Part shown: positions 14,863-55,753 of the stretch, one piece after another
How positions within the stretch are numbered: position 1 is the stretch's first letter
Layout of the letters: every line of letters starts with the position of its first letter
Source of the DNA: Tortispora ganteri
Taxonomy: Eukaryota
Assembly: GCA_003707115.1 (NCBI GenBank)
Contig: PPNB01000002.1
Location: 1-64,000, forward strand
Reading direction: 5' to 3'
Length of the DNA: 64,000 bases
Notes under the pieces: generated by a model
Told to the model about the DNA's origin: nothing
The model's database searches: none
The model's input: the letters and a program-made list of their open reading frames with translations, nothing else
Translations under genes and position numbers: made by a program

Positions 14863-17100
14863 GTCGAAAGAGGAGAATCGGATCATTGAAGGTTATTATG
14901 TTATATGCAATTTCTTGAACATCCTTACAATCAGAAGATTTAATAAGTAATAATGTAGTAATTACTGTTGAATTGTAAATTTATTTTGATTTTTAAGCAA
15001 TATTTAAAACAAAATGGCCATTAAGAATAGAAAAAAAAAGTAACAAGTTTATAGTTAACAATTGAACGGTATTGTTAATTTATCGTACGTAAATACGAAT
15101 GGCTAAATATCAGATATTAAAGGCACTTTACAGGTTTGCAGAGACACCATCTAAGATATTGTCGCTAACCAAAAGACACAAAAATTCGGCTGAAAATCGA
15201 GGTCATATGGCTCATAGATGGGCAAGAAATCAATACGAACAGTTGCCTAACTGCCTTCTTTCTATGCTGGCACTTTTTGAGTAATAGTACCCCAGAATAA
15301 AGAGTAGGATTTGAAGATATATTTATTTGAGGCAATTTAATTCGCAGCCTTATACGGAACCTTTTGCTGCTCCTTCGGATTGCAGCCAGTACAAACCAAG
15401 ATCTTACATTTTGTTATCATAATATTACACCAAACTGCTGTTTTGTTCTCTCCTCTTGCATTTGTATATATAACATTATCAGTGTCTTTAGCTTAGTCCC
15501 AATTAACAATTCTGATTAATTCTGATATAATATACATTTTATTGGCAGAAAAGCTCAAACAACCTCATTTCGCTTGAGTTAAAAATATTAAACCGATTAA
15601 TGGCATATGAAAACTATATTCAGTGAGGGGTTAGCAAATTCTACACACGTGTAGTATATCATCAACTGTAGCCGATCAGGCTTCTTGTTGATAAAATTAA
15701 CCATATAAATACGTTATCGAACTGGCTATGGAGTTTTGATAAGTGGCTAATTTTCTTACCTGCAGCAATCGATCCTTCACATTGGTTCGAATACTAGTTG
15801 GTAAGTATTATCCTGAGGTTTTCCTTGATCTCGTAATCATTTATTAAACGCTAATTTGGGGATGAATTGATAGGAATTCGCGAGATTGGCGATTTGGTCA
15901 ACTGCAGAAACTAAAAATACAGTCCATCTACGTATCCGGAAGGTTAGAAACTTATTTTGTAGTGACTTAAACGTTTCAATTCGTCAGAACCATTGTTCAA
16001 TACCACATGTGTATTTTAAAGATTGATAGTCTTACTTCAAATCCTAATAGCTAAACTCATAGACCAATTACCCTGCTGTTCTTAAATCTAACATTTGACT
16101 CTTCTGTATACACCTTTGTGTCTCTGACTGCTATGTCATATATACGTCAATCTCTACACTAGCAATTATTAGTTATTAGTAATGCAATTAGATGGAAATT
16201 CTCTAGCTTCCTGACTGTTATTGATTCCTGCACTTCTTGACGACTCGGCCGCTTATATGCAATGATTTCCGTGCACCTATACAATGCACCTTTGTTCATC
16301 AAAACTCTGTACAAAAAAGTTTATCTATTAGAAACGTACCTTGTTCTATGTGTCAACTTACCAATACAAAATGATGAGTGCTATTTATCACTTCTAGTTT
16401 TCGCTAAGATGGCACTACAACGTAGTGTGGGCAGCTCTGTTACCTCTAGGTACATATTATACTCTGATAGTTTAATGCGGAATGACTGAAAGATATGAAA
16501 TAATACTGTTTAACACTCAAGTATTTACATATTAATTGATTAATTTATGGCATGACCTTTGCTGAGTTAGTAAGTTTTTAAGTCTAGGCGTGAAGACATA
16601 CTCCTTTGCGGCTAACCTTACTCTGACGGCAAACTGACCGGCCACCGACCAACAAATATGATAAACGTTCCAGTCCTTGTGAGCGGCAAAGCATCTCAAA
16701 GTACACTAATATATTTTATATCTCAAAAATATTAAAACAGCTTTCTGGTTGATTGAATCATCATAATCTGACAACGGATCCGTCTATCTTTGATACTTGG
16801 AATTAGTCGATATAAGCTTTCAGTTCCGGATGCAACAGTGTGCTAGCCGTTTCTGTAAAACATAATTAAACTTTCTTGGCCGATTTACTAGTCTATGTTA
16901 CCTTCAAAGTCTATTTGTTGGCCGAGTTTGTTTTACAGTGCAACAGTGACATTTCGCCAATGAACTGACCGGCGATGCTAACGAATACTGCTTTTAAAGT
17001 TGCTTATGAAATATTTCCGCAAGCCTATATTAGGGCATGCTTCTCGCACTCTTGCTGAATTACCTTCATTGCATGGTATTACTGAAATATCACTACAGTT

Positions 17101-19056
17101 ATGACCATACAAGCTGTTACTGTTACTGAGACATATCTGTGCTCACCACCGGTAGAAACAACTACCGTGTACCAGAAGGCGTTCTCTTCAGGTAAAGGAG
17201 TTGTAACCGTTTATGATGACTTCTGTGTACCAAAAACAGAATCCGTCAATGGTGTATATTGCTATGCCTGCACACCTGCTGTGGTGACTTATGTTCCAAA
17301 ACCTCCACTTGTCAAAGATTCTCAAACATTTGTGTGGGGGTTTTACGAAGAAATATCTGTTTCTGTATCAATCGACATTGATGTAACAGTTGAGATACCT
17401 ATTATTATTACCGAAACAGTTGCACCCACTTCGGCCTCTGCAACGGGAACTTTGCCCACTACGACTAAGAGTTTGCCAACTACGACTAAGAGTTTGCCAA
17501 CTACGACTAAGAGTTTGCCCACTACTACCACTTCGGTCTCCTCTAAGAGTTCGTCCAGTCTCACTGGAGGTTCATCTAGCATTACCGCTGGTGCTCCTGA
17601 AAGCTGTTCTACTGCACCTCCATATCAGGATGGGATTGTAAGCGCAGAGTTTTACCCAGGTGAATGGACCCCTCAGGATATTGCTGACTTAGCGTACAGG
17701 AACGCCATTTATGCAGCGGGGGCTAATTTTGTTATTGATAACAGTAACAATTCTATATCATTTGATGCGTTCAAGGGGGGTGTCACAGAAATGATGGCAT
17801 ATGTCTTTATACATGATACCAATCAGCTTACGGTCACATCAATAGAGCAAGCGGCTAATGCTCATATTTACATTGGAGAGAATGCGATGAGTTGTTCGAA
17901 TATCACTGAAGTTGGAAGTGAAGGATATTCTGGATCTGGAGAAATAGTTGCAGGAAATGGCTACTCCGTTGTTTTTGATTTCAATGCTTATAACGCGTGG
18001 TACCCTGTCCGTCTTCTAATCCTAAGAAATGAAGAATCTGATTCTGCTAATAAAAGAGACTACGTTGACTTTTTTACTCTAAAGTTTCACGAGGAACAAC
18101 CCGAGAAAACCTTTTCAGTTCGTGCGGGCGTTTCACAGAGTTCTTCTTCAACTTCAGTTGTTTCTACACCCACTTCGGTCTCCTCTAAGAGTTCATCTTC
18201 TCTAAATTCTACGCTTTCTCTTCAAACTCCTTCACTTTCTTCTCCTAGTGAAAAACCTAGCTCTTCTAGTGTTCATGCCAGTGTCTCTCATGAAGATTTG
18301 TCATCGAGTGTTTCTTCCACCCTATCTTCCATAACGACTTACTCAAGTGAAATCATATCTTCTGGCTATGTGTCTGGTTGTCCTATAAGTAGTCTGACAA
18401 CATATGGTGCGTCTTTGTACGAAAATATAGGTTGGTATAATGAAGACCAAATACAGAATGGAGAATACCGAACTGACTATATTCGTAAGAGTGATGCGGC
18501 TAGTTCGAATTGCAATCAGGGCACTTGTACTATGGAATACGCGTTTTCTGGTTCCATGTCGCACGATAATTTTATCTTGCAAGAAGCATTGGGTTTCGTG
18601 AAGTCTGTACCGGGTGGAGGAACGTTCCAAGCTGAGTTTAGTTATGAAGGTTTCACTTTCGCAGGATACGTTGGAAATTCAAGCTTTGTGCTACCGCTGA
18701 ATTTTTACGACGCTACAGACTATTTTCTCGGATTGGAAGTTCAGATTACAGCTGCTTGGAATGGTGCGGGAGGAAATTGCACGGACATTTATTCCATTTC
18801 ATCTGAAGCTGTTGCGAACCCGAGTAATTTCGTTACGCAACGGTTTTTTGCCGAAATAGGTGGAGGTACATTAGATTTCCCGAATGATTTTGATGCTGTA
18901 TACTATTATCCCGTCCGTGTCGTGGTACTAAGAAATTTACCGTCTGCCACTGAAGACTTATATTCAGTCATTGGACGTGCCTATGGAGTTAATCCTGACG
19001 AGATTACTATCAACACTATCACTTCCAATTCAACTCTTAACTTTTTCATCCAATAG
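17101..19056 (+). CDS. Ser/Thr-rich adhesin/flocculin-like protein with two divergent PA14/GLEYA-like modules; 5' end uncertain
   Basis: LPTTTKS repeats, Ser-rich linkers and a KR site. Two related modules end in WYPVRLLILRN and YYYPVRVVVLRN. No in-frame signal peptide or GPI tail is visible. Confidence 0.6.
   Translation: MTIQAVTVTETYLCSPPVETTTVYQKAFSSGKGVVTVYDDFCVPKTESVNGVYCYACTPAVVTYVPKPPLVKDSQTFVWGFYEEISVSVSIDIDVTVEIPIIITETVAPTSASATGTLPTTTKSLPTTTKSLPTTTKSLPTTTTSVSSKSSSSLTGGSSSITAGAPESCSTAPPYQDGIVSAEFYPGEWTPQDIADLAYRNAIYAAGANFVIDNSNNSISFDAFKGGVTEMMAYVFIHDTNQLTVTSIEQAANAHIYIGENAMSCSNITEVGSEGYSGSGEIVAGNGYSVVFDFNAYNAWYPVRLLILRNEESDSANKRDYVDFFTLKFHEEQPEKTFSVRAGVSQSSSSTSVVSTPTSVSSKSSSSLNSTLSLQTPSLSSPSEKPSSSSVHASVSHEDLSSSVSSTLSSITTYSSEIISSGYVSGCPISSLTTYGASLYENIGWYNEDQIQNGEYRTDYIRKSDAASSNCNQGTCTMEYAFSGSMSHDNFILQEALGFVKSVPGGGTFQAEFSYEGFTFAGYVGNSSFVLPLNFYDATDYFLGLEVQITAAWNGAGGNCTDIYSISSEAVANPSNFVTQRFFAEIGGGTLDFPNDFDAVYYYPVRVVVLRNLPSATEDLYSVIGRAYGVNPDEITINTITSNSTLNFFIQ
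17452..17526 (+). repeat. 21-nt coding minisatellite (TTGCC[A/C]ACTACGACTAAGAGT, about 3.5 copies) encoding LPTTTKS
   Basis: Read directly. CACTTCGGTCTCCTCTAAGAGTTC also occurs twice (about 17530 and 18171). Confidence 0.95.
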
Positions 19057-19218: not shown

Positions 19219-20343
19219 TTATTTTCGCGGAAGTATGCTGACTTTCCAGTTTGAACTTGAAGACAGTTGGTCAGGGAGAGATTCGTGATACAATTGTAAG
19301 GTAATATTCAGATCATGAAACACATGTTGATCAATGTAAAATAATTCTTGAGGGGTTGCAGTATTGATATCGTGATTATACATAACATTCAATGCATGTA
19401 TTGGTTCAGGTGTATTCTGGTTTGTGAAATATATGTCAGAACTTATGACTCGTATAAGGAGAGCATCATTGAACTGGTAGAAGAAATGACCATGCGCATG
19501 AATTGCCTCTAAAATCAAATTAGAAATGACTTGGACTGAGGTGAAATCATGCGAAAAAAAGTTCCATTTAGGTATTTTAATAGTCCCGGAGTCATTGAGG
19601 GACATTCCGATTGGTGCGCTACAACTGTTGCATCTGACGACGTCACCAGCGATCTAAATTCTGTTAGTAACCACATAAAGAATAAGAAAATGCATGTCCT
19701 TGTTGCACTTGCTACATGTGGCATGAGTACAGATAATCTTAAGATATATCGGCCAAAGTAGAATATGCAGCTTCAAGAATGTTGTTCTAGGACCTTAGTA
19801 TCGAAACAAATACATCAATACGTACAGGTTTCTTCTTCGAAGGTCCATTATGGCAGTTTAGCTTACCTTAATCAGACAATTTTTTGCATTTAAAAGCAAG
19901 TAAGTGGATGCAGAATATACAGTACCTTCCTGGCATTGAATATTGTGAGACACCGCATACCTTAAGGACGTTGTCTCTGATACGGGTTCGTGACAGTGCC
20001 ACAAGTCTAAAAGCTCCTCCCAGTATTCTGAAGGCAGGTCGAAGCAATACTTTGCGCCGCTTGTAAGCACCATGTTACAATGTACGCACGATAATGGCTT
20101 ACCTTGCAGTTCAGACGCTGGCCATATATCTGGTATGTCGCGAAAGTGTTGTTCGACATCTGCGTTTGAAGCCAATTTCAATGTTGTGTCATTACAATCG
20201 CCACAATATGATGTTTCACACGCTAAAATATAATTTCTGCCATTAGAAACAGTCGCTATATTCCTACATACACTCTTTACTGGCTCTTCGCTGACAATTA
20301 GTACCCTTGAAAGTCGCGGAAGATATTCCGAGTAAAACTTCAT
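19219..20343 (-). CDS. IPA1: Ipa1/UBE3D-like HECT_2 protein (about 303 aa); exons 20343-19867 and 19653-19219, intron 19866-19654 (213 nt)
   Basis: MKFYSEYLPRL start, CVHC, and DLPSEYWEELLDLWHCH signature. A phase-0 intron GTAAGC...TACTAAC-AGAATTTAG joins LIK to IAGDVVRCNSC...IKIPKWN, merging two track ORFs and restoring the second CxxC. Confidence 0.88.
19692..19848 (-). ncRNA. SNR81: Intronic box H/ACA snoRNA, snR81-like (predicted guide for U2 Psi42 and LSU rRNA Psi1052 equivalents)
   Basis: Hairpin 1 is GGACCTT/AAGGTCC plus GAAAC/GTTTC with pocket AAGAA/GATACT. H box AGAACA at 19788-19783. Hairpin 2 is TTCTTG/CAAGGA plus CTAC/GTAG with pocket TGCATATT/AAGT. ACA box at 19697-19695. Ends are approximate. 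Confidence 0.85.
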
Positions 20344-20677: not shown

Positions 20678-22531
20678 ATGGCTCCTGTAGAATCTCCTGT
20701 TATGGCAGGCACGCCATTGATTACCGCACCATTGAAACGTAAAAGACGAAACGATGCTCCTGTTACAAACAAGAAAATCGAAATTGACATCTCTTCTTCC
20801 CCTTACCACTCGCATATCACACAAATTATTGAATCGTCAAAGAATGGCAACTTAGATCTTCTTAACAGTTTGATAAAGCAACTCAAGAACGACTCAGACT
20901 CTGATCCATCTTTAACACCTCTTTCAGACGATGACTTGAGCCATATTCTCACTGCTCTCACAGCTGAAATGTCCCACTTAGATGCTCCCGTTTTCTCCGA
21001 GCTCATCGTTACTATCCTGAACCTCAATTGTACCATTCATCGTTCAAGCGTCACCAAACTCCATGTCCGATTTTTAGCTGTACTAGTTTCTACGGCCCCT
21101 AAGTGGATTAGTGAAATATATAGACGTATAGTCGCTCGATTTGTCTATCCGGCGTCTGAAGATGACCATTATGCTATCAACTCAATATTGTCTGTTGTAC
21201 CAACATCATCTTCTACTTTAGGGAAAATTATCACAAAGCAATTTCCGGATATAGCGGAAGAAACTGTTTTGATAGTTAACTATTTGGAAAACTGCCTCCA
21301 TGTCCTTCGTTATTGTCCTGAATTGTCGCAATCTATCTGGAATGCGATCTTTGAGATCCTTGTCCGCATAGATGTTGAGTTGGTCCTTGACGATGACGAA
21401 GAAGAAGATGAGGATCAAATGGACCAAGCTGATTCTTGCGACGGCTTGTCTAACCACTATGAACGCCCGCAGAGACACGTAAGGTTTGAGGATGACGTGA
21501 TGTCGGAAAACGAACAATCTTCTCCTGTACATGGCGCATCTGAGCCACCTGTCAAGTCAGACGATATCGACGCCAAAGAGGAACTAGTCGATGAAGGCGG
21601 TGAAGTCGAGGAAGACGATAATAGCCCCTCCGCTAAACAGTTACGTGCTACACTTGATGCACTACTTGCACGAATTTTCTGCTCATGTGAATTTGCATTT
21701 TCAGAGTCTGCTGCTTATTCTGAAGATACTTCCGCTCTATACTCGACGTTTCTATCAGCATTTCGAACGTATTTATTGCCGACGCATCGAACACAGTTCA
21801 CACAATTTTTAATTTTTAAAGCCTCGCAAGCATCCCCAGTTTTCATGGATGCGTTTCTGGTATGTCTTATTGAAGCAGCGCTTTCACCTTACGATAATAT
21901 TCAGTGCAGGCTGAAAGCAGTGCAGTATATTGGATCTTATGTTGCACGTGCAAAGTCGTTAACCCGAGGACAAATGCTTTTTGTTGTTTCTATGCTCGTT
22001 TCTTGGGTTGATAGATACATCCGGGAAAGGGAATCAGAGGTTGCATCAACAAATTCCATGATTCGCTTTTCATTGTTTTACGCGGTTGTTCAATCAATGT
22101 TTTATATTTTCTGTTTTAGGCATCGCGATTTAAGACACACCAAGGAAGATGACATTGAGAAAGAAGCATTAGCAGCAACAGAGCTGCCAGCTGCGCCCAG
22201 TGAATGGGTTTTTGGTTTGGATCAGTTTTTCCAGCGAGCGATTACATCGCAATTTAATCCGCTGAAGTACTGCAACAAGTCAGTTGTATCGATGTTTGCA
22301 AAAGTAGCACAGCGCCATGATGTTGTTTACTGCTATTCTATTATGGAACAGAATCGCCGTGGACTTGGGCTACAACGTACGCCGTCTGTACAGTTGGTGA
22401 ATAGCATTATTGATTTCACCGAAGTTGAAGCATACTTTCCGTTTGATCCGTTCACGTTACGAAATTCGAAACGTTACATTACGAATTTGTATGTCGATTG
22501 GTCATCAGTAGCGGATATTAGTGAGGATGAA

Positions 22532-22566
<35 letters not shown>

Positions 22567-22648
22567 AGAAGAAGAAGATGAGGAAGACATGAATACAGAT
22601 TCCGATTCGGAGGATTCCGAAGGATCTGAATCTGAAGTGGAAGTATAA
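20678..22648 (+). CDS. RRN3: RNA polymerase I initiation factor Rrn3
   Basis: LLPTHRTQFTQFLIF, AVQYIGSYVARAK, FYAVVQSMFYIFCFR, FNPLKYC, YFPFDP; acidic tail. Confidence 0.95.
22529..22576 (+). repeat. (GAA)n microsatellite encoding 16 Glu in the Rrn3 tail
   Basis: Read directly; one GAG interruption. Confidence 0.95.
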
Positions 22649-52015: not shown

Positions 52016-53347
52016 TTATTTCTCTTGCGGGGATTTCAAATTTGTGGACTCAGACAGATACGGAGAGTCATTGACAGTTGGTACGACAGGCGAAGCCATA
52101 TCATTCTGCTCGCTATTTTGTCTCTTGACTTTGCTAAGTTTTCTGCCTTCCGAAACACTTCGTCCTCTTCCTTGTTTAGCTGCTCCGCGTCCTCCTCGTC
52201 CAGAAGCAGCTCTGCTACCTCCCCTACTAATGGGTTTAGAAGATGTGCTGCTGATTGGCGATGGGTCTGCAGAATGTTGAGACATTGGCGTGCCAGGTCC
52301 CATTGCAGATCTAGGTGCACCTCCACCAACAGGGCCAGCCATTTTGGTATTAATATTAGGCACATGAATGTCTGAAACAGGCTGAGATCGAGATACGTGT
52401 AGTAAATCCACAATCTCAGGATCACCATTAGCAAAGGCGTGCATGATGTCAAATGGACTGATCGGTTCTTGCGTGCCCTTTCGATCACGAACGCGGTGGT
52501 CAAGATAAATCAGTTCACGTAATGTCGACATGGCTTGAACTGTTTCAAGGCGCTTTAAGAACATATTAGAAATTCCCAAGTCGCTATAGTCTTTTAACAT
52601 ATTAGTTTCGCCCGAATCAAGCATTTTCAGCACCCTGGCACGTGTGTAAGAGTCTGATATTTCAGCAGCAAGGAATTCGATCCATTCAATTTTCATATTG
52701 GCACTAAATAGTACCCGAAGTGGCCCTCTACATTGGAGGCAAAAACCATCTGCATAATTCTGAGTAATAAGAGCTGACTTAGACTCTAAGAAGACAGTGC
52801 CAGTAGGCATCCGGGCCTCCTGGAGTGACTCGAAGAATATGTGCGTCTTCACGATAGAGGTATTGTATAAGCTGTAGAGAGTGGCGGGAAGAAGCAAATA
52901 AGGAATTTCAAAAAGACGTCTCTCTGCAAGATTATGATGTACAAAAGTAATCCTGACACGCGAAAATTTTGAGAAAAACTCGTTCGTAACGTGCGACCAG
53001 TACTCCATTCTGGAAGCATCCGACTGTGGTCGCACTATAGATAACAATTCCGCTAGACGAAGCAGCCGGCTTTGGCCACTTTCAGGTTTCCCAGGGTAGA
53101 TTACGGGGCCTCGAGTTCGGTTATTGTAAATTACTTCTGCAGGTACGCCAGCGGCATTAGGGCCCGGGCCAGCCATCGGTGGTACAGGCATAGCAAGTGT
53201 ATTGGTCAAGTTTTCGTTTTTGAATCGCTGTGGAGGAACATGTACAGTGTGTATGATATTGGAGTTTGGAGGAGGTGGCGCATACGCAGAACCCGCATTC
53301 GGATTCGAAGGCATGGCAGCATCCTGCATTGAAATAGGGTGGCTCAT
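52016..53347 (-). CDS. MFG1: LIM-domain-binding family regulator (Mfg1/Adn1/PtaB-like)
   Basis: RLLRLAELLS...YWSHVTNEFFS...RLFEIP...GPLRV...KIEWIEF...GIS..FLKRLE...MSTL, flanked by low-complexity tails. Confidence 0.75.
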   Translation of the reverse strand: MSHPISMQDAAMPSNPNAGSAYAPPPPNSNIIHTVHVPPQRFKNENLTNTLAMPVPPMAGPGPNAAGVPAEVIYNNRTRGPVIYPGKPESGQSRLLRLAELLSIVRPQSDASRMEYWSHVTNEFFSKFSRVRITFVHHNLAERRLFEIPYLLLPATLYSLYNTSIVKTHIFFESLQEARMPTGTVFLESKSALITQNYADGFCLQCRGPLRVLFSANMKIEWIEFLAAEISDSYTRARVLKMLDSGETNMLKDYSDLGISNMFLKRLETVQAMSTLRELIYLDHRVRDRKGTQEPISPFDIMHAFANGDPEIVDLLHVSRSQPVSDIHVPNINTKMAGPVGGGAPRSAMGPGTPMSQHSADPSPISSTSSKPISRGGSRAASGRGGRGAAKQGRGRSVSEGRKLSKVKRQNSEQNDMASPVVPTVNDSPYLSESTNLKSPQEK

Positions 53348-54401
53348 GTGGACTTACTGAATAGAATGCGACGATCGCCAAGCGACGTCAAAACTGTACG
53401 TATATCAAACGGCGCTCTACAGAGAATGTAGGTGCAAGCGAGGAAAACTGGTAACAAATAATGATAAAACACTGTATAAAAACAAAGCCAGGAATGATCA
53501 ATAAGATTTAAATTGGCGTGCAAGCTAATTACAGCAGTAGTGGTTCGAGCGTGAAGAGCTGCCGGTCGAGATAAAGTGAAGTTAGATAATAAGGTTTTCC
53601 GACAAATCCATCCTCAGATTTCAGGACGGACTCGAAAATTTCCATAAACTAATAGTCTTATAGTATTATCAGTATTAGAAGATTATTATATATCTGAAAA
53701 CATCTTTTAAAATATTTATAAAGCTTTAGATCAATGTATATCGAAACATCAAGTTGTAATAGAAGGTGCCAGGATAGAAGTTACTTGCAGTTGGGTAATA
53801 ATTATACTGATATTAATATTTAAAAGAGTGTGAGGAAATTTTCTTTTCCCTTAGCCAACCTCTTCAGTAAAACCGAAGATATGAGAAGTCTTTTATTAGA
53901 ATATGGCCTTTCTGTACAAGGTTTCTCATATATTTTCTTTTAAAGGTAAGTTAGTATTATTATATAATGATGACAGAATTTGGTATCTTTCCTACAGTCT
54001 GATTCGACCTAGATGACATATGGTTGGCTTTATACGCTTTTTCTTTTAAGTATTTAGCCTTACTAAGCCAGTATTTTCAAGTCTGAATTGTTTCATTTAA
54101 AAAATAAAAGAATATTTCTAACTTTTATAGTTGAGGCGAAGCTCGGAATAGAATATTTAAAATTATTTTAATCTTTTTCAAGCAAGTCAGATGATGAGAA
54201 ATTCCATTAAACATTCGCAGTTTCCTCGGTAGTAGATCGCTTGAACCCAATTCTTAGATCTATCTGTGACCGCCAATGTCCTTCCTGGGATGTCTGATGT
54301 CTTGTTGTTAAATAAAAATATTAAAATAAATATACATAAATCATAATCTATCGTAAGTATTCGTATCGTCATGCGCACTTGCAGTGTCTTTGCGTGCGTC
54401 G

Positions 54402-55601
54402 TCAAGACCGCAGTCTGCCTAATCCATCTGTAGCGTAGTAAGTCATCGGATACACGTCTGACCATGCAGGCTCTTCACCGAACGCAATAGTCGCTTCATA
54501 GGGCGACAATAATGGTCGGGGGAATGCATAACCCCAGTCAATAGACAACCGCGGGCATGCCACCTGCACCCAGGCATCAACGGTATCGAATAATGCGATC
54601 TTGTCAGGGAAGATTTCAGAAAGTAGAATGAGCACAGTTTTTTTGCCTTTATTCTCAATAAGCTCTCTAATATGTTTGACAGTGTTATTATTGCCCTGTC
54701 TGCCGAGCGTGCCCATTATAATTCCGACTGTGTTGGCCCGACGCGCAATAGATATCGCAGATCGTCGCAGAGAGTGCATCTCCTGAAAGTCATAACTTTC
54801 TTGAGTAAACTTGCGTGAATACGGATCATAGCTGTAGGCTGGTATCTCTGGGTTATGGATCATCATGGACTCTAAATGAAACCTGCCATCGCCAACATAC
54901 ACAATGACGGTCTTCGAATCATCCCCTGTAGTCAGCCTGGGTGACGTGCAGCCCAGAATTTCGCCCTTAGACAGTGGTGCAGCTTGAGGAACAATTACAG
55001 TGCGTCCAGGTGCCTTCTGTGGCAGTTCTCTTCTCAATGCTTGAATAGTAGGGTTGAACTGTATTGTACCAACCAGTACTATTGTGTGACCAGGGCCAAA
55101 GTTCAGGGCCAATGTGTTGATCAGATGATCCCGATCAACGGCTATGGTAACAAATATATAGAGAATTTTAATACCTTTAGTGACTTCTAAGGGTATTAAA
55201 CAAGAATGCGCATAATGCACCATCATGTCGCAATTTAACGCTTTTGCAGTGTAGTCGTCCACGCAACAAGCACCGTATGTTACATCGCCCATCACCACTA
55301 CATCCTGCACTGTTGGACAAAATTGTTCTATGATATCAGCGATCGTGCATGCAAATATTAGTAAACCCTCTGGCATTTGAAGAGCTACACGTTTAGCCTC
55401 CTGTTTGCGCACGTTGAACACGGTCTTATAGATTTCGAAATCATAGTTCTTCGGCAGGATCGAAATAGCTTTCTGTAGATCCTCATCATTTAAGATGTCG
55501 TCGGGAATTTGAGAAACCAACCGAGCTTTTCTCTGTGTAACAAGCTGAGAATCTGCTGCTTTTCGTCCAATGAATCGCCGAGTTTTACTGTCGGACGTCA
55601 T
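54402..55601 (-). CDS. DPH1: Diphthamide synthesis protein Dph1
   Basis: [54 protein letters not shown]. Confidence 0.96.
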
Positions 55602-55753
55602 GATTAGTCAAAGTGTAAGAAGTTTTCAATCTATGGCAATATATGAAAACACCTCCCAACCCAACCACAGAGATACTCATTCAGCGGATGTCAACGTTTT
55701 ATTAACAATTGATCTACTACTTCTCATTGTAATGATCTGAATTTTTTTTTATT

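Follow-up and report, generated by a model that had tools for sequence, protein, structure and literature searches.

A putative snR81-like box H/ACA guide RNA within the intron of an Ipa1/UBE3D-family gene of Tortispora ganteri

What does an intron of 213 nucleotides (nt) contain in a genome whose ordinary introns measure about 50 nt? The intron in question interrupts a gene of the Ipa1/UBE3D family (the IPA1-type gene) on the minus strand of a 64,000-nt stretch of DNA from Tortispora ganteri (GenBank assembly GCA_003707115.1, contig PPNB01000002.1, positions 1 to 64,000 of the forward strand), referred to below as the window. An initial annotation had proposed that the intron hides a box H/ACA small nucleolar RNA (snoRNA) related to snR81, the Saccharomyces cerevisiae guide for pseudouridine (Psi) 42 of U2 small nuclear RNA (snRNA) and Psi1052 of the large subunit (LSU) ribosomal RNA (rRNA). 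From our analysis we consider it likely that the intron encodes, on its sense strand, a guide RNA of the box H/ACA class, roughly 157 nt long, that is the counterpart, and probably the orthologue, of S. cerevisiae snR81. The putative U2 guide function draws on direct sequence evidence, judged against yeast U2; pairing of the 3' pocket with the LSU1052 site is proposed with less confidence.

The candidate RNA, at 19848-19692, lies wholly within the intron (19866-19654) and is sense to the HECT_2 exons of its host. It is laid out on the minus strand as a predicted hairpin, AGAACA, a second predicted hairpin and ACA, and comprises the following features:

19692..19848, minus strand: candidate guide RNA of the box H/ACA class, about 157 nt with predicted ends, from the Rfam alignment and the fold
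19790..19846, minus strand: 5' hairpin, with a 7-bp lower stem, an open pocket, a 5+6-bp upper stem and an AUUG loop
19833..19839, minus strand: 5' strand of pocket 1, CGAAGAA, from the predicted fold
19797..19802, minus strand: 3' strand of pocket 1, GAUACU, from the predicted fold
19783..19788, minus strand: H box AGAACA (ANANNA), 14 nt past upper stem 1 and one nt past lower stem 1
19698..19779, minus strand: 3' hairpin, with a lower stem, a presumed pocket, an irregular upper stem and a UUAA loop
19762..19773, minus strand: 5' strand of presumed pocket 2, AAGCUGCAUAUU
19703..19711, minus strand: 3' strand of presumed pocket 2, CAAGUGCAA
19695..19697, minus strand: ACA box, right after lower stem 2 and 14 nt past upper stem 2

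Lower stem 1 is formed by the 7-bp helix GGACCUU/AAGGUCC (19846-19840 / 19796-19790), and the H box that follows it is unpaired in the minimum free energy (MFE) fold. In the 3' hairpin the lower stem is UUCUUG/CAAGG (19779-19774 / 19702-19698) and the upper stem begins with CUAC/GUAG (19761-19758 / 19715-19712). The distance from upper stem to box is exactly 14 nt in both hairpins, and the 3' end is placed at 19692, 3 nt beyond the ACA. An alternative ACA at 19703-19701, which follows a UGCAU/GUGCA helix, was rejected because it has no usable pocket 14 nt upstream. The coordinates, strand and two-hairpin layout that had been read from this intron in the initial annotation all hold.

Pocket 1 was compared with yeast U2, the numbering being taken from nt 31-78 of that RNA as printed in PMC4712673. 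Its GAUACU strand is exactly complementary to A36-C41 and its AAGAA to U44-U48, and the adjacent G may also wobble with U49. The predicted pairing therefore involves 6+5 bases. U42 and G43 remain free where the pocket meets the upper stem, at a distance of 14 nt from the H box, which is the classical geometry for pseudouridylation of U42, since box H/ACA guides place the target U about 14-16 nt from the H or ACA box. The earlier suggestion that this pocket fits the U2 Psi42 site is thereby borne out by exact complementarity to the printed yeast sequence. The same 15-nt U2 motif appears in papers that, by title or abstract, deal with amphibian, fish, larch and human-cell U2, and it is very likely to be present in this yeast as well.

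At the curated gathering thresholds of Rfam no family matched anywhere in the window. An E-value search of positions 19500-20000 (501 nt) with 4227 families returned four matches, the best of which is snR81 (RF01246, clan CL00025), aligned at 19853..19692 on the minus strand over model positions 1-188 of 188 (21.7 bits, E 0.12). The second is the Drosophila small Cajal body RNA (scaRNA) PsiU2-38.40.42 (RF02667), which covers the 5' hairpin only (19.3 bits, E 0.53), and the remaining two are unrelated families at about 14 bits. Both of the top matches are thus H/ACA families that guide U2 pseudouridylation, and both lie on the right strand. Taken alone, by our own arithmetic of dividing E by 4227, the snR81 match has an expectation of about 3e-5 on the 501-nt stretch and about 4e-3 for the window.

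The blocks that are identical to the snR81 consensus are AAGAAG, CGAUACUA, GGUCC, AGAACAA, CAUAUU, AAG and ACAU. AAGAAG and CGAUACUA fall in pocket 1, AGAACAA (consensus AGAacAA) covers the H box, and CAUAUU and AAG fall in pocket 2, where CAUAUU adjoins the upper stem. The GAUAC of pocket 1 is also identical in the Drosophila PsiU2-38.40.42 consensus. Because its score is below the threshold of the family, we label the candidate snR81-like and not a curated member of it.

The 5' hairpin has a predicted fold whose stability greatly exceeds what its composition would lead one to expect, with an MFE of -19.2 kcal/mol against -9.05 +/- 2.31 kcal/mol for shuffled sequences (z -4.39; 0 of 200 as stable). 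Its MFE and centroid structures are the same, and in them the pocket is open over 7 and 6 nt.

Two motif patterns were used to gauge how often guide bases and boxes would fall together by accident. AAGAA..GATACT..ANANNA, which represents the hairpin-1 guide and the H box, has one match on the two strands of the window (128 kb), where 0.16 are expected and 13 of 100 window shuffles contain at least one. GCATATT..AAGT..ACA, representing the hairpin-2 guide and the ACA box, likewise has one match, with 0.15 expected and at least one in 14 of 100 shuffles. These two matches, each unique in the window, adjoin one another in order on the same strand. The intron itself was also shuffled 200,000 times by dinucleotides and scanned with patterns tolerant of G-U pairs, a test that leans towards chance because the composition is retained. 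The hairpin-1 pattern arose in 1,351 of the shuffles, the hairpin-2 pattern in 1,874, both in 20, and both in the right order in 1; in all of these counts the stems are left out of account. About 30 H/ACA guides are known in yeast, and even after a generous correction for that number a chance origin of the arrangement appears unlikely.

For pocket 2 the target was assumed to be the LSU context of the Psi1052 site, which we take to read ACUU-(UA)- followed by a 3' half. Against this assumed context the pocket would form 4+8 pairs, one of them G-U, around the U-A and 14 nt from the ACA box. AAGU within CAAGUGCAA is complementary to the ACUU, with C19711 left unpaired beside the upper stem, and the 3' half of the assumed context is matched by the last 8 nt of AAGCUGCAUAUU, the G-U pair included.

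The host gene was recognised as a minus-strand open reading frame (ORF) whose match to Pfam HECT_2 (PF09814, UBE3D/Ipa1 family) is split at 19866..19654. The upstream part (19867-20340) matches HECT_2 profile positions 97-191 (E 7.8e-17) and the downstream part (19219-19653) positions 205-365 of 369 (E 1.6e-09), which supports assignment of the gene to the Ipa1/UBE3D family. Its features are:

19867..20343, minus strand: exon 1 of the host gene, from the ORF and the HECT_2 match; start codon uncertain
19219..19653, minus strand: exon 2 of the host gene, stop codon included, from the ORF and the HECT_2 match
19654..19866, minus strand: spliceosomal intron of 213 nt, phase 0, with 5' GTAAGC at 19866-19861 and 3' TAG at 19656-19654
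19663..19669, minus strand: branch-site box TACTAAC, read from the sequence, 9 nt before the 3' splice site

Reading through the intron reaches a stop codon after two codons. This early stop, the GTAAGC, TACTAAC and TAG signals, and the consecutive HECT_2 ranges on either side mark this as a true spliceosomal intron, the sole one of the gene so far as HECT_2 profile coverage shows. The ATG at 20343-20341 begins MKFYSEYLP, and the frame is open upstream as far as 20529. Comparison of exon 1 with longer proteins gave no match at E<=0.001. Ipa1 is described in PMC7236606 and PMC6265451 as the yeast UBE3D homologue, which works with the Ysh1 endonuclease. The MFE fold of the whole intron places a 6-bp outer stem (19854-19849 / 19675-19670, GCCAUA/UGUGGU, with two G-U pairs) around the candidate RNA, and this predicted stem would bring the 5' splice site beside the branch box.

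The length of the intron is itself informative. Outside the candidate RNA it has 18 nt on the 5' side and 38 nt on the 3' side; 213 nt less about 157 nt therefore leaves a remainder of 56 nt, about the size of ordinary introns in this genome and close to the 52 nt of a verified intron at 478-529. That intron is on the minus strand and reads GTAAGT...TAACTAAC...TAG; its removal joins two coding segments close to the beginning of a gene for a Rab6/Ypt6-like GTPase. A 50-nt candidate intron at 787-836 on the plus strand (GTAAGTG...TCTAAC...TAG) has an open frame on either side, of 51 and 56 codons respectively, and is probably the other short intron with which the 213-nt intron had originally been compared. 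Of that comparison the long intron stands, but the two short ones, given as 50-52 nt, belong to other genes, and the 50-nt one is a candidate only.

Several results weigh against reading this RNA as a full counterpart of snR81. The 3' hairpin is as stable as its shuffles and no more so (-16.5 against -16.51 kcal/mol, z 0.00; 96 of 200 as stable), and in the MFE fold pocket 2 is closed by a 5-bp UGCAU/GUGCA helix in which the guide bases are paired together. A fold in which neither pocket is closed is less stable by 7.8 kcal/mol (-27.9 against -35.7 kcal/mol). For the whole 157 nt z is only -1.55, and 12 of 200 shuffles fold as well. Of the assumed LSU context, print confirms only the 5' ...CAAACTT half, through the fungal LSU primer LR17R, whose sequence finishes in ...CTC AAA CTT (PMC2816965); in literature text the 14-nt context motif was found only in an unrelated paper, and no primer spanning its 3' half was found. 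The snR81 score of 21.7 bits is well below the gathering score of 50, and an E-value search of the whole window lists six other matches and not snR81; scaled to that length and taken over all families, its E would be about 15. In part the shuffle statistics are post hoc, since the targets were chosen after the sequence had been read. Canzler et al. 2018 class snR81 as Saccharomyces-only (PMC5824354), and Donovan et al. 2016 did not recover it from the Candida parapsilosis group (PMC5033589); the lack of snR81 outside Saccharomyces in such surveys either reflects limited detection or hints at convergence.

With these results the dual function proposed in the initial annotation divides: the U2 pocket stands, and the LSU pocket is weak, by the z of zero of its hairpin, its closure in the MFE fold and its assumed target. 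The comparison with Rfam that it had suggested as a check also gave a divided answer, in that snR81 is the best of 4227 families, full length and on the right strand, but is sub-threshold and missing from the window-wide search.

The same results bear on whether the intron might carry a real H/ACA RNA of which only the 5' pocket, for the U2 Psi42-equivalent, is active. Such an RNA would be a U2-specific guide of the animal SCARNA4 type; its 3' hairpin would serve as a structural arm for assembly of the ribonucleoprotein (RNP), and the LSU match would be decayed or coincidental. The disparity between the two hairpins (z -4.39 against 0.00), the 5-bp helix across pocket 2, the restriction of the second-best Rfam match to the 5' hairpin and the frequency of the hairpin-2 pattern alone (1,874 of 200,000 shuffles) are all as this explanation would have them. 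It has a parallel as well, since PMC5733568 reports that snR81 guides U2 Psi42 and that vertebrate SCARNA4 and Xenopus SCARNA15 can substitute for it at this position, rescuing U2 Psi42 in snr81-delta yeast. We nevertheless consider it unlikely, because the alignment to snR81 spans the entire model, with CAUAUU and AAG in place in pocket 2, and because the 4+8-base complementarity lies at the right distance of 14 nt from the ACA box. Moreover, pocket 2 points to snR81's own recorded site: the Fisher table in PMC2551606 lists S. cerevisiae snR81 at chrXV 234298>234538 with target LSU1052, and with homologues only in Saccharomyces sensu stricto.

It is less likely still that the candidate is a look-alike, an ordinary long intron in which box-like motifs and short complementarities have fallen together by chance and from which no stable RNA arises. 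An Rfam score far under threshold and unseen window-wide, a modest z for the whole RNA, targets picked post hoc and a metagenome scan in which 77 matches to 21 specified bases come close to the chance prediction (see below) would all be expected of such an intron. It would not be expected to bring the joint guide patterns into order, as 1 of 200,000 shuffles did, nor to fold into a 5' hairpin at z -4.39 whose pocket is open exactly at the guide bases. The sense orientation, the functional concordance of the two top Rfam matches and a length equal to a mini-intron plus the RNA also argue against chance.

That the hairpins and the 6-bp outer stem are instead a cis-acting element, which joins the 5' splice site and branch site or regulates IPA1 splicing and has no guide function in trans, is highly improbable: the very stable 5' hairpin and the intron-wide MFE fold, with the hairpins inside the outer stem beside the branch box, would suit it, but it leaves the H/ACA boxes at 14 nt, the exact U2 complementarity and the snR81 match unexplained, and the outer stem that it calls for contains two G-U pairs.

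Taken as an snR81-like guide, the candidate shares with snR81 the two-hairpin H/ACA plan, the U2 Psi42 guide bases AAGAAG/CGAUACUA, the AGAACAA H box and the CAUAUU/AAG of pocket 2. It differs in size, at about 157 nt against a model of 188 positions, in its shorter upper stems and in its weak 3' hairpin. In S. cerevisiae snR81 is a stand-alone gene, and IPA1 is intronless and on another chromosome, whereas the candidate lies inside the intron of a protein gene.

The complementarity to U2 within the pocket is also that of Drosophila PsiU2-38.40.42 and of vertebrate SCARNA4/ACA26 and SCARNA15. The candidate differs in that no further pockets are evident that would serve positions 38 and 40, and its second hairpin resembles the rRNA guide of snR81 and not a second snRNA guide. 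The CAB box of scaRNAs is a UGAG-type motif; by eye, no such UGAG is present in the terminal loops of the candidate, AUUG and UUAA, which does not mark it as a scaRNA.

Among budding yeasts, the intron-encoded H/ACA snoRNAs snR44 (in RPS22B) and snR191 (in NOG2) offer the closest comparison of arrangement. As with these, one snoRNA would lie in the sense orientation in one intron and occupy most of it. The host differs, being a regulator of 3'-end processing and not a ribosome-biogenesis or ribosomal-protein gene, and so does the cargo, which would modify U2 snRNA.

A search of the literature found no intronic snR81 and no IPA1-hosted snoRNA, with survey supplements, Ma et al. 2005 and Wu et al. 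2011 outside the search; the name 'snR81' in a table column of PMC2780460 denotes a box C/D RNA and was set aside as irrelevant. Deintronization, by which snoRNAs that are intronic in other yeasts stand alone in Saccharomyces, is described by Hooks et al. 2014 (PMC4202332) and in PMC5033589, citing Mitrovich et al. 2010. The novelty suggested for the arrangement in the initial annotation is partial: the search found no description of an intronic snR81, but the passage of snoRNAs from introns to stand-alone genes had been described. The arrangement is not very surprising, since snoRNA genes are known to move between introns and independent units.

Evidence from relatives was sought in metagenome contigs with the pattern AAGAAG..CGATACTA..AGAACAA (21 specified bases). 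The scan gave 77 loci, about the number expected by chance, and none of these has the downstream CATATT...ACA arm or convincing stems. Among 65 distinct hairpin sequences compared, which comprised that of the window and those of the 77 metagenome loci, a 7-bp flanking helix is likewise present in two of the metagenome hairpins and two GC-rich ones are more stable, but none is H/ACA-like, so that the scan yielded no relatives. Among sequencing runs on record, two DNA runs of about 10 million letters, possibly the source of the window, contain the stretch, and no RNA run does. The contigs of four other organisms from the same studies were compared with the stretch at 80% likeness, and none of the four matched.

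Divergent from the IPA1-type gene lies RRN3 (PF05327, RNA polymerase I initiation factor; 20678-22645, plus strand), the product of which has a long acidic C-terminal tail. This protein has 69 relatives at E<=0.001, the best named being that of Yarrowia lipolytica, with 42% identity over 48% of the query; identities are 35-36% for Lipomyces and 31-33% for Lachancea and Kluyveromyces. From this divergence the organism is a budding yeast far from Saccharomyces, with no close sequenced relative in that protein collection. Converging on the 3' end of the IPA1-type gene is a 656-codon frame at 17086-19056 on the plus strand, Ser/Thr-rich with TTTKSLP repeats, whose protein looks like a cell-wall or adhesin type.

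Elsewhere in the window, a U14 box C/D snoRNA (Rfam SNORD14) was detected at 54186-54301 on the plus strand (59.9 bits, E 2.8e-10, full model). It was missed by the curated-threshold scan because 59.9 bits falls below its gathering score of 64. The C and D boxes are clear by eye, and the gene appears intergenic, between minus-strand ORFs at 52019-53353 and 54405-55607. Sub-threshold matches to SNORD24, SNORD36 and snoR30 lie within long ORFs and were judged to be chance, as was a SNORD72 match at 19412-19485 on the plus strand (28.4 bits, E 4.8), which is antisense to exon 2 and has no visible C/D box.

If the candidate is the snR81-like guide that we propose, it would be transcribed within the host pre-mRNA, and Cbf5, Nop10, Nhp2 and Gar1 would assemble on both of its hairpins. 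After splicing and debranching, exonucleases would trim the 18-nt 5' and 38-nt 3' flanks back to the protected core. A broader and more speculative scenario, which we hold to be unlikely, is that a dual U2-Psi42/LSU-Psi1052 guide is ancient in budding yeasts and resided originally in the IPA1 intron, that S. cerevisiae SNR81 is its relocated or deintronized descendant, and that the arrangement forms a feedback loop. Were this so, a guide for the branch-site region of U2 would be released only through U2-dependent splicing of its own host intron, and its supply would be coupled to how its host, which regulates the Ysh1 3'-end endonuclease, is expressed.

If a yeast so distant has a credible counterpart of snR81, the guide would have arisen deep within the budding yeasts. 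Such a counterpart would suggest that an RNA directs U2 Psi42 there too, in line with S. cerevisiae and animals, and would also add an H/ACA case, and one that modifies an snRNA, to the transition of yeast snoRNAs from intronic to independent genes. For the annotation of such genomes, an unusually long intron among introns of about 50 nt is a useful flag for snoRNAs that lie under the Rfam thresholds.

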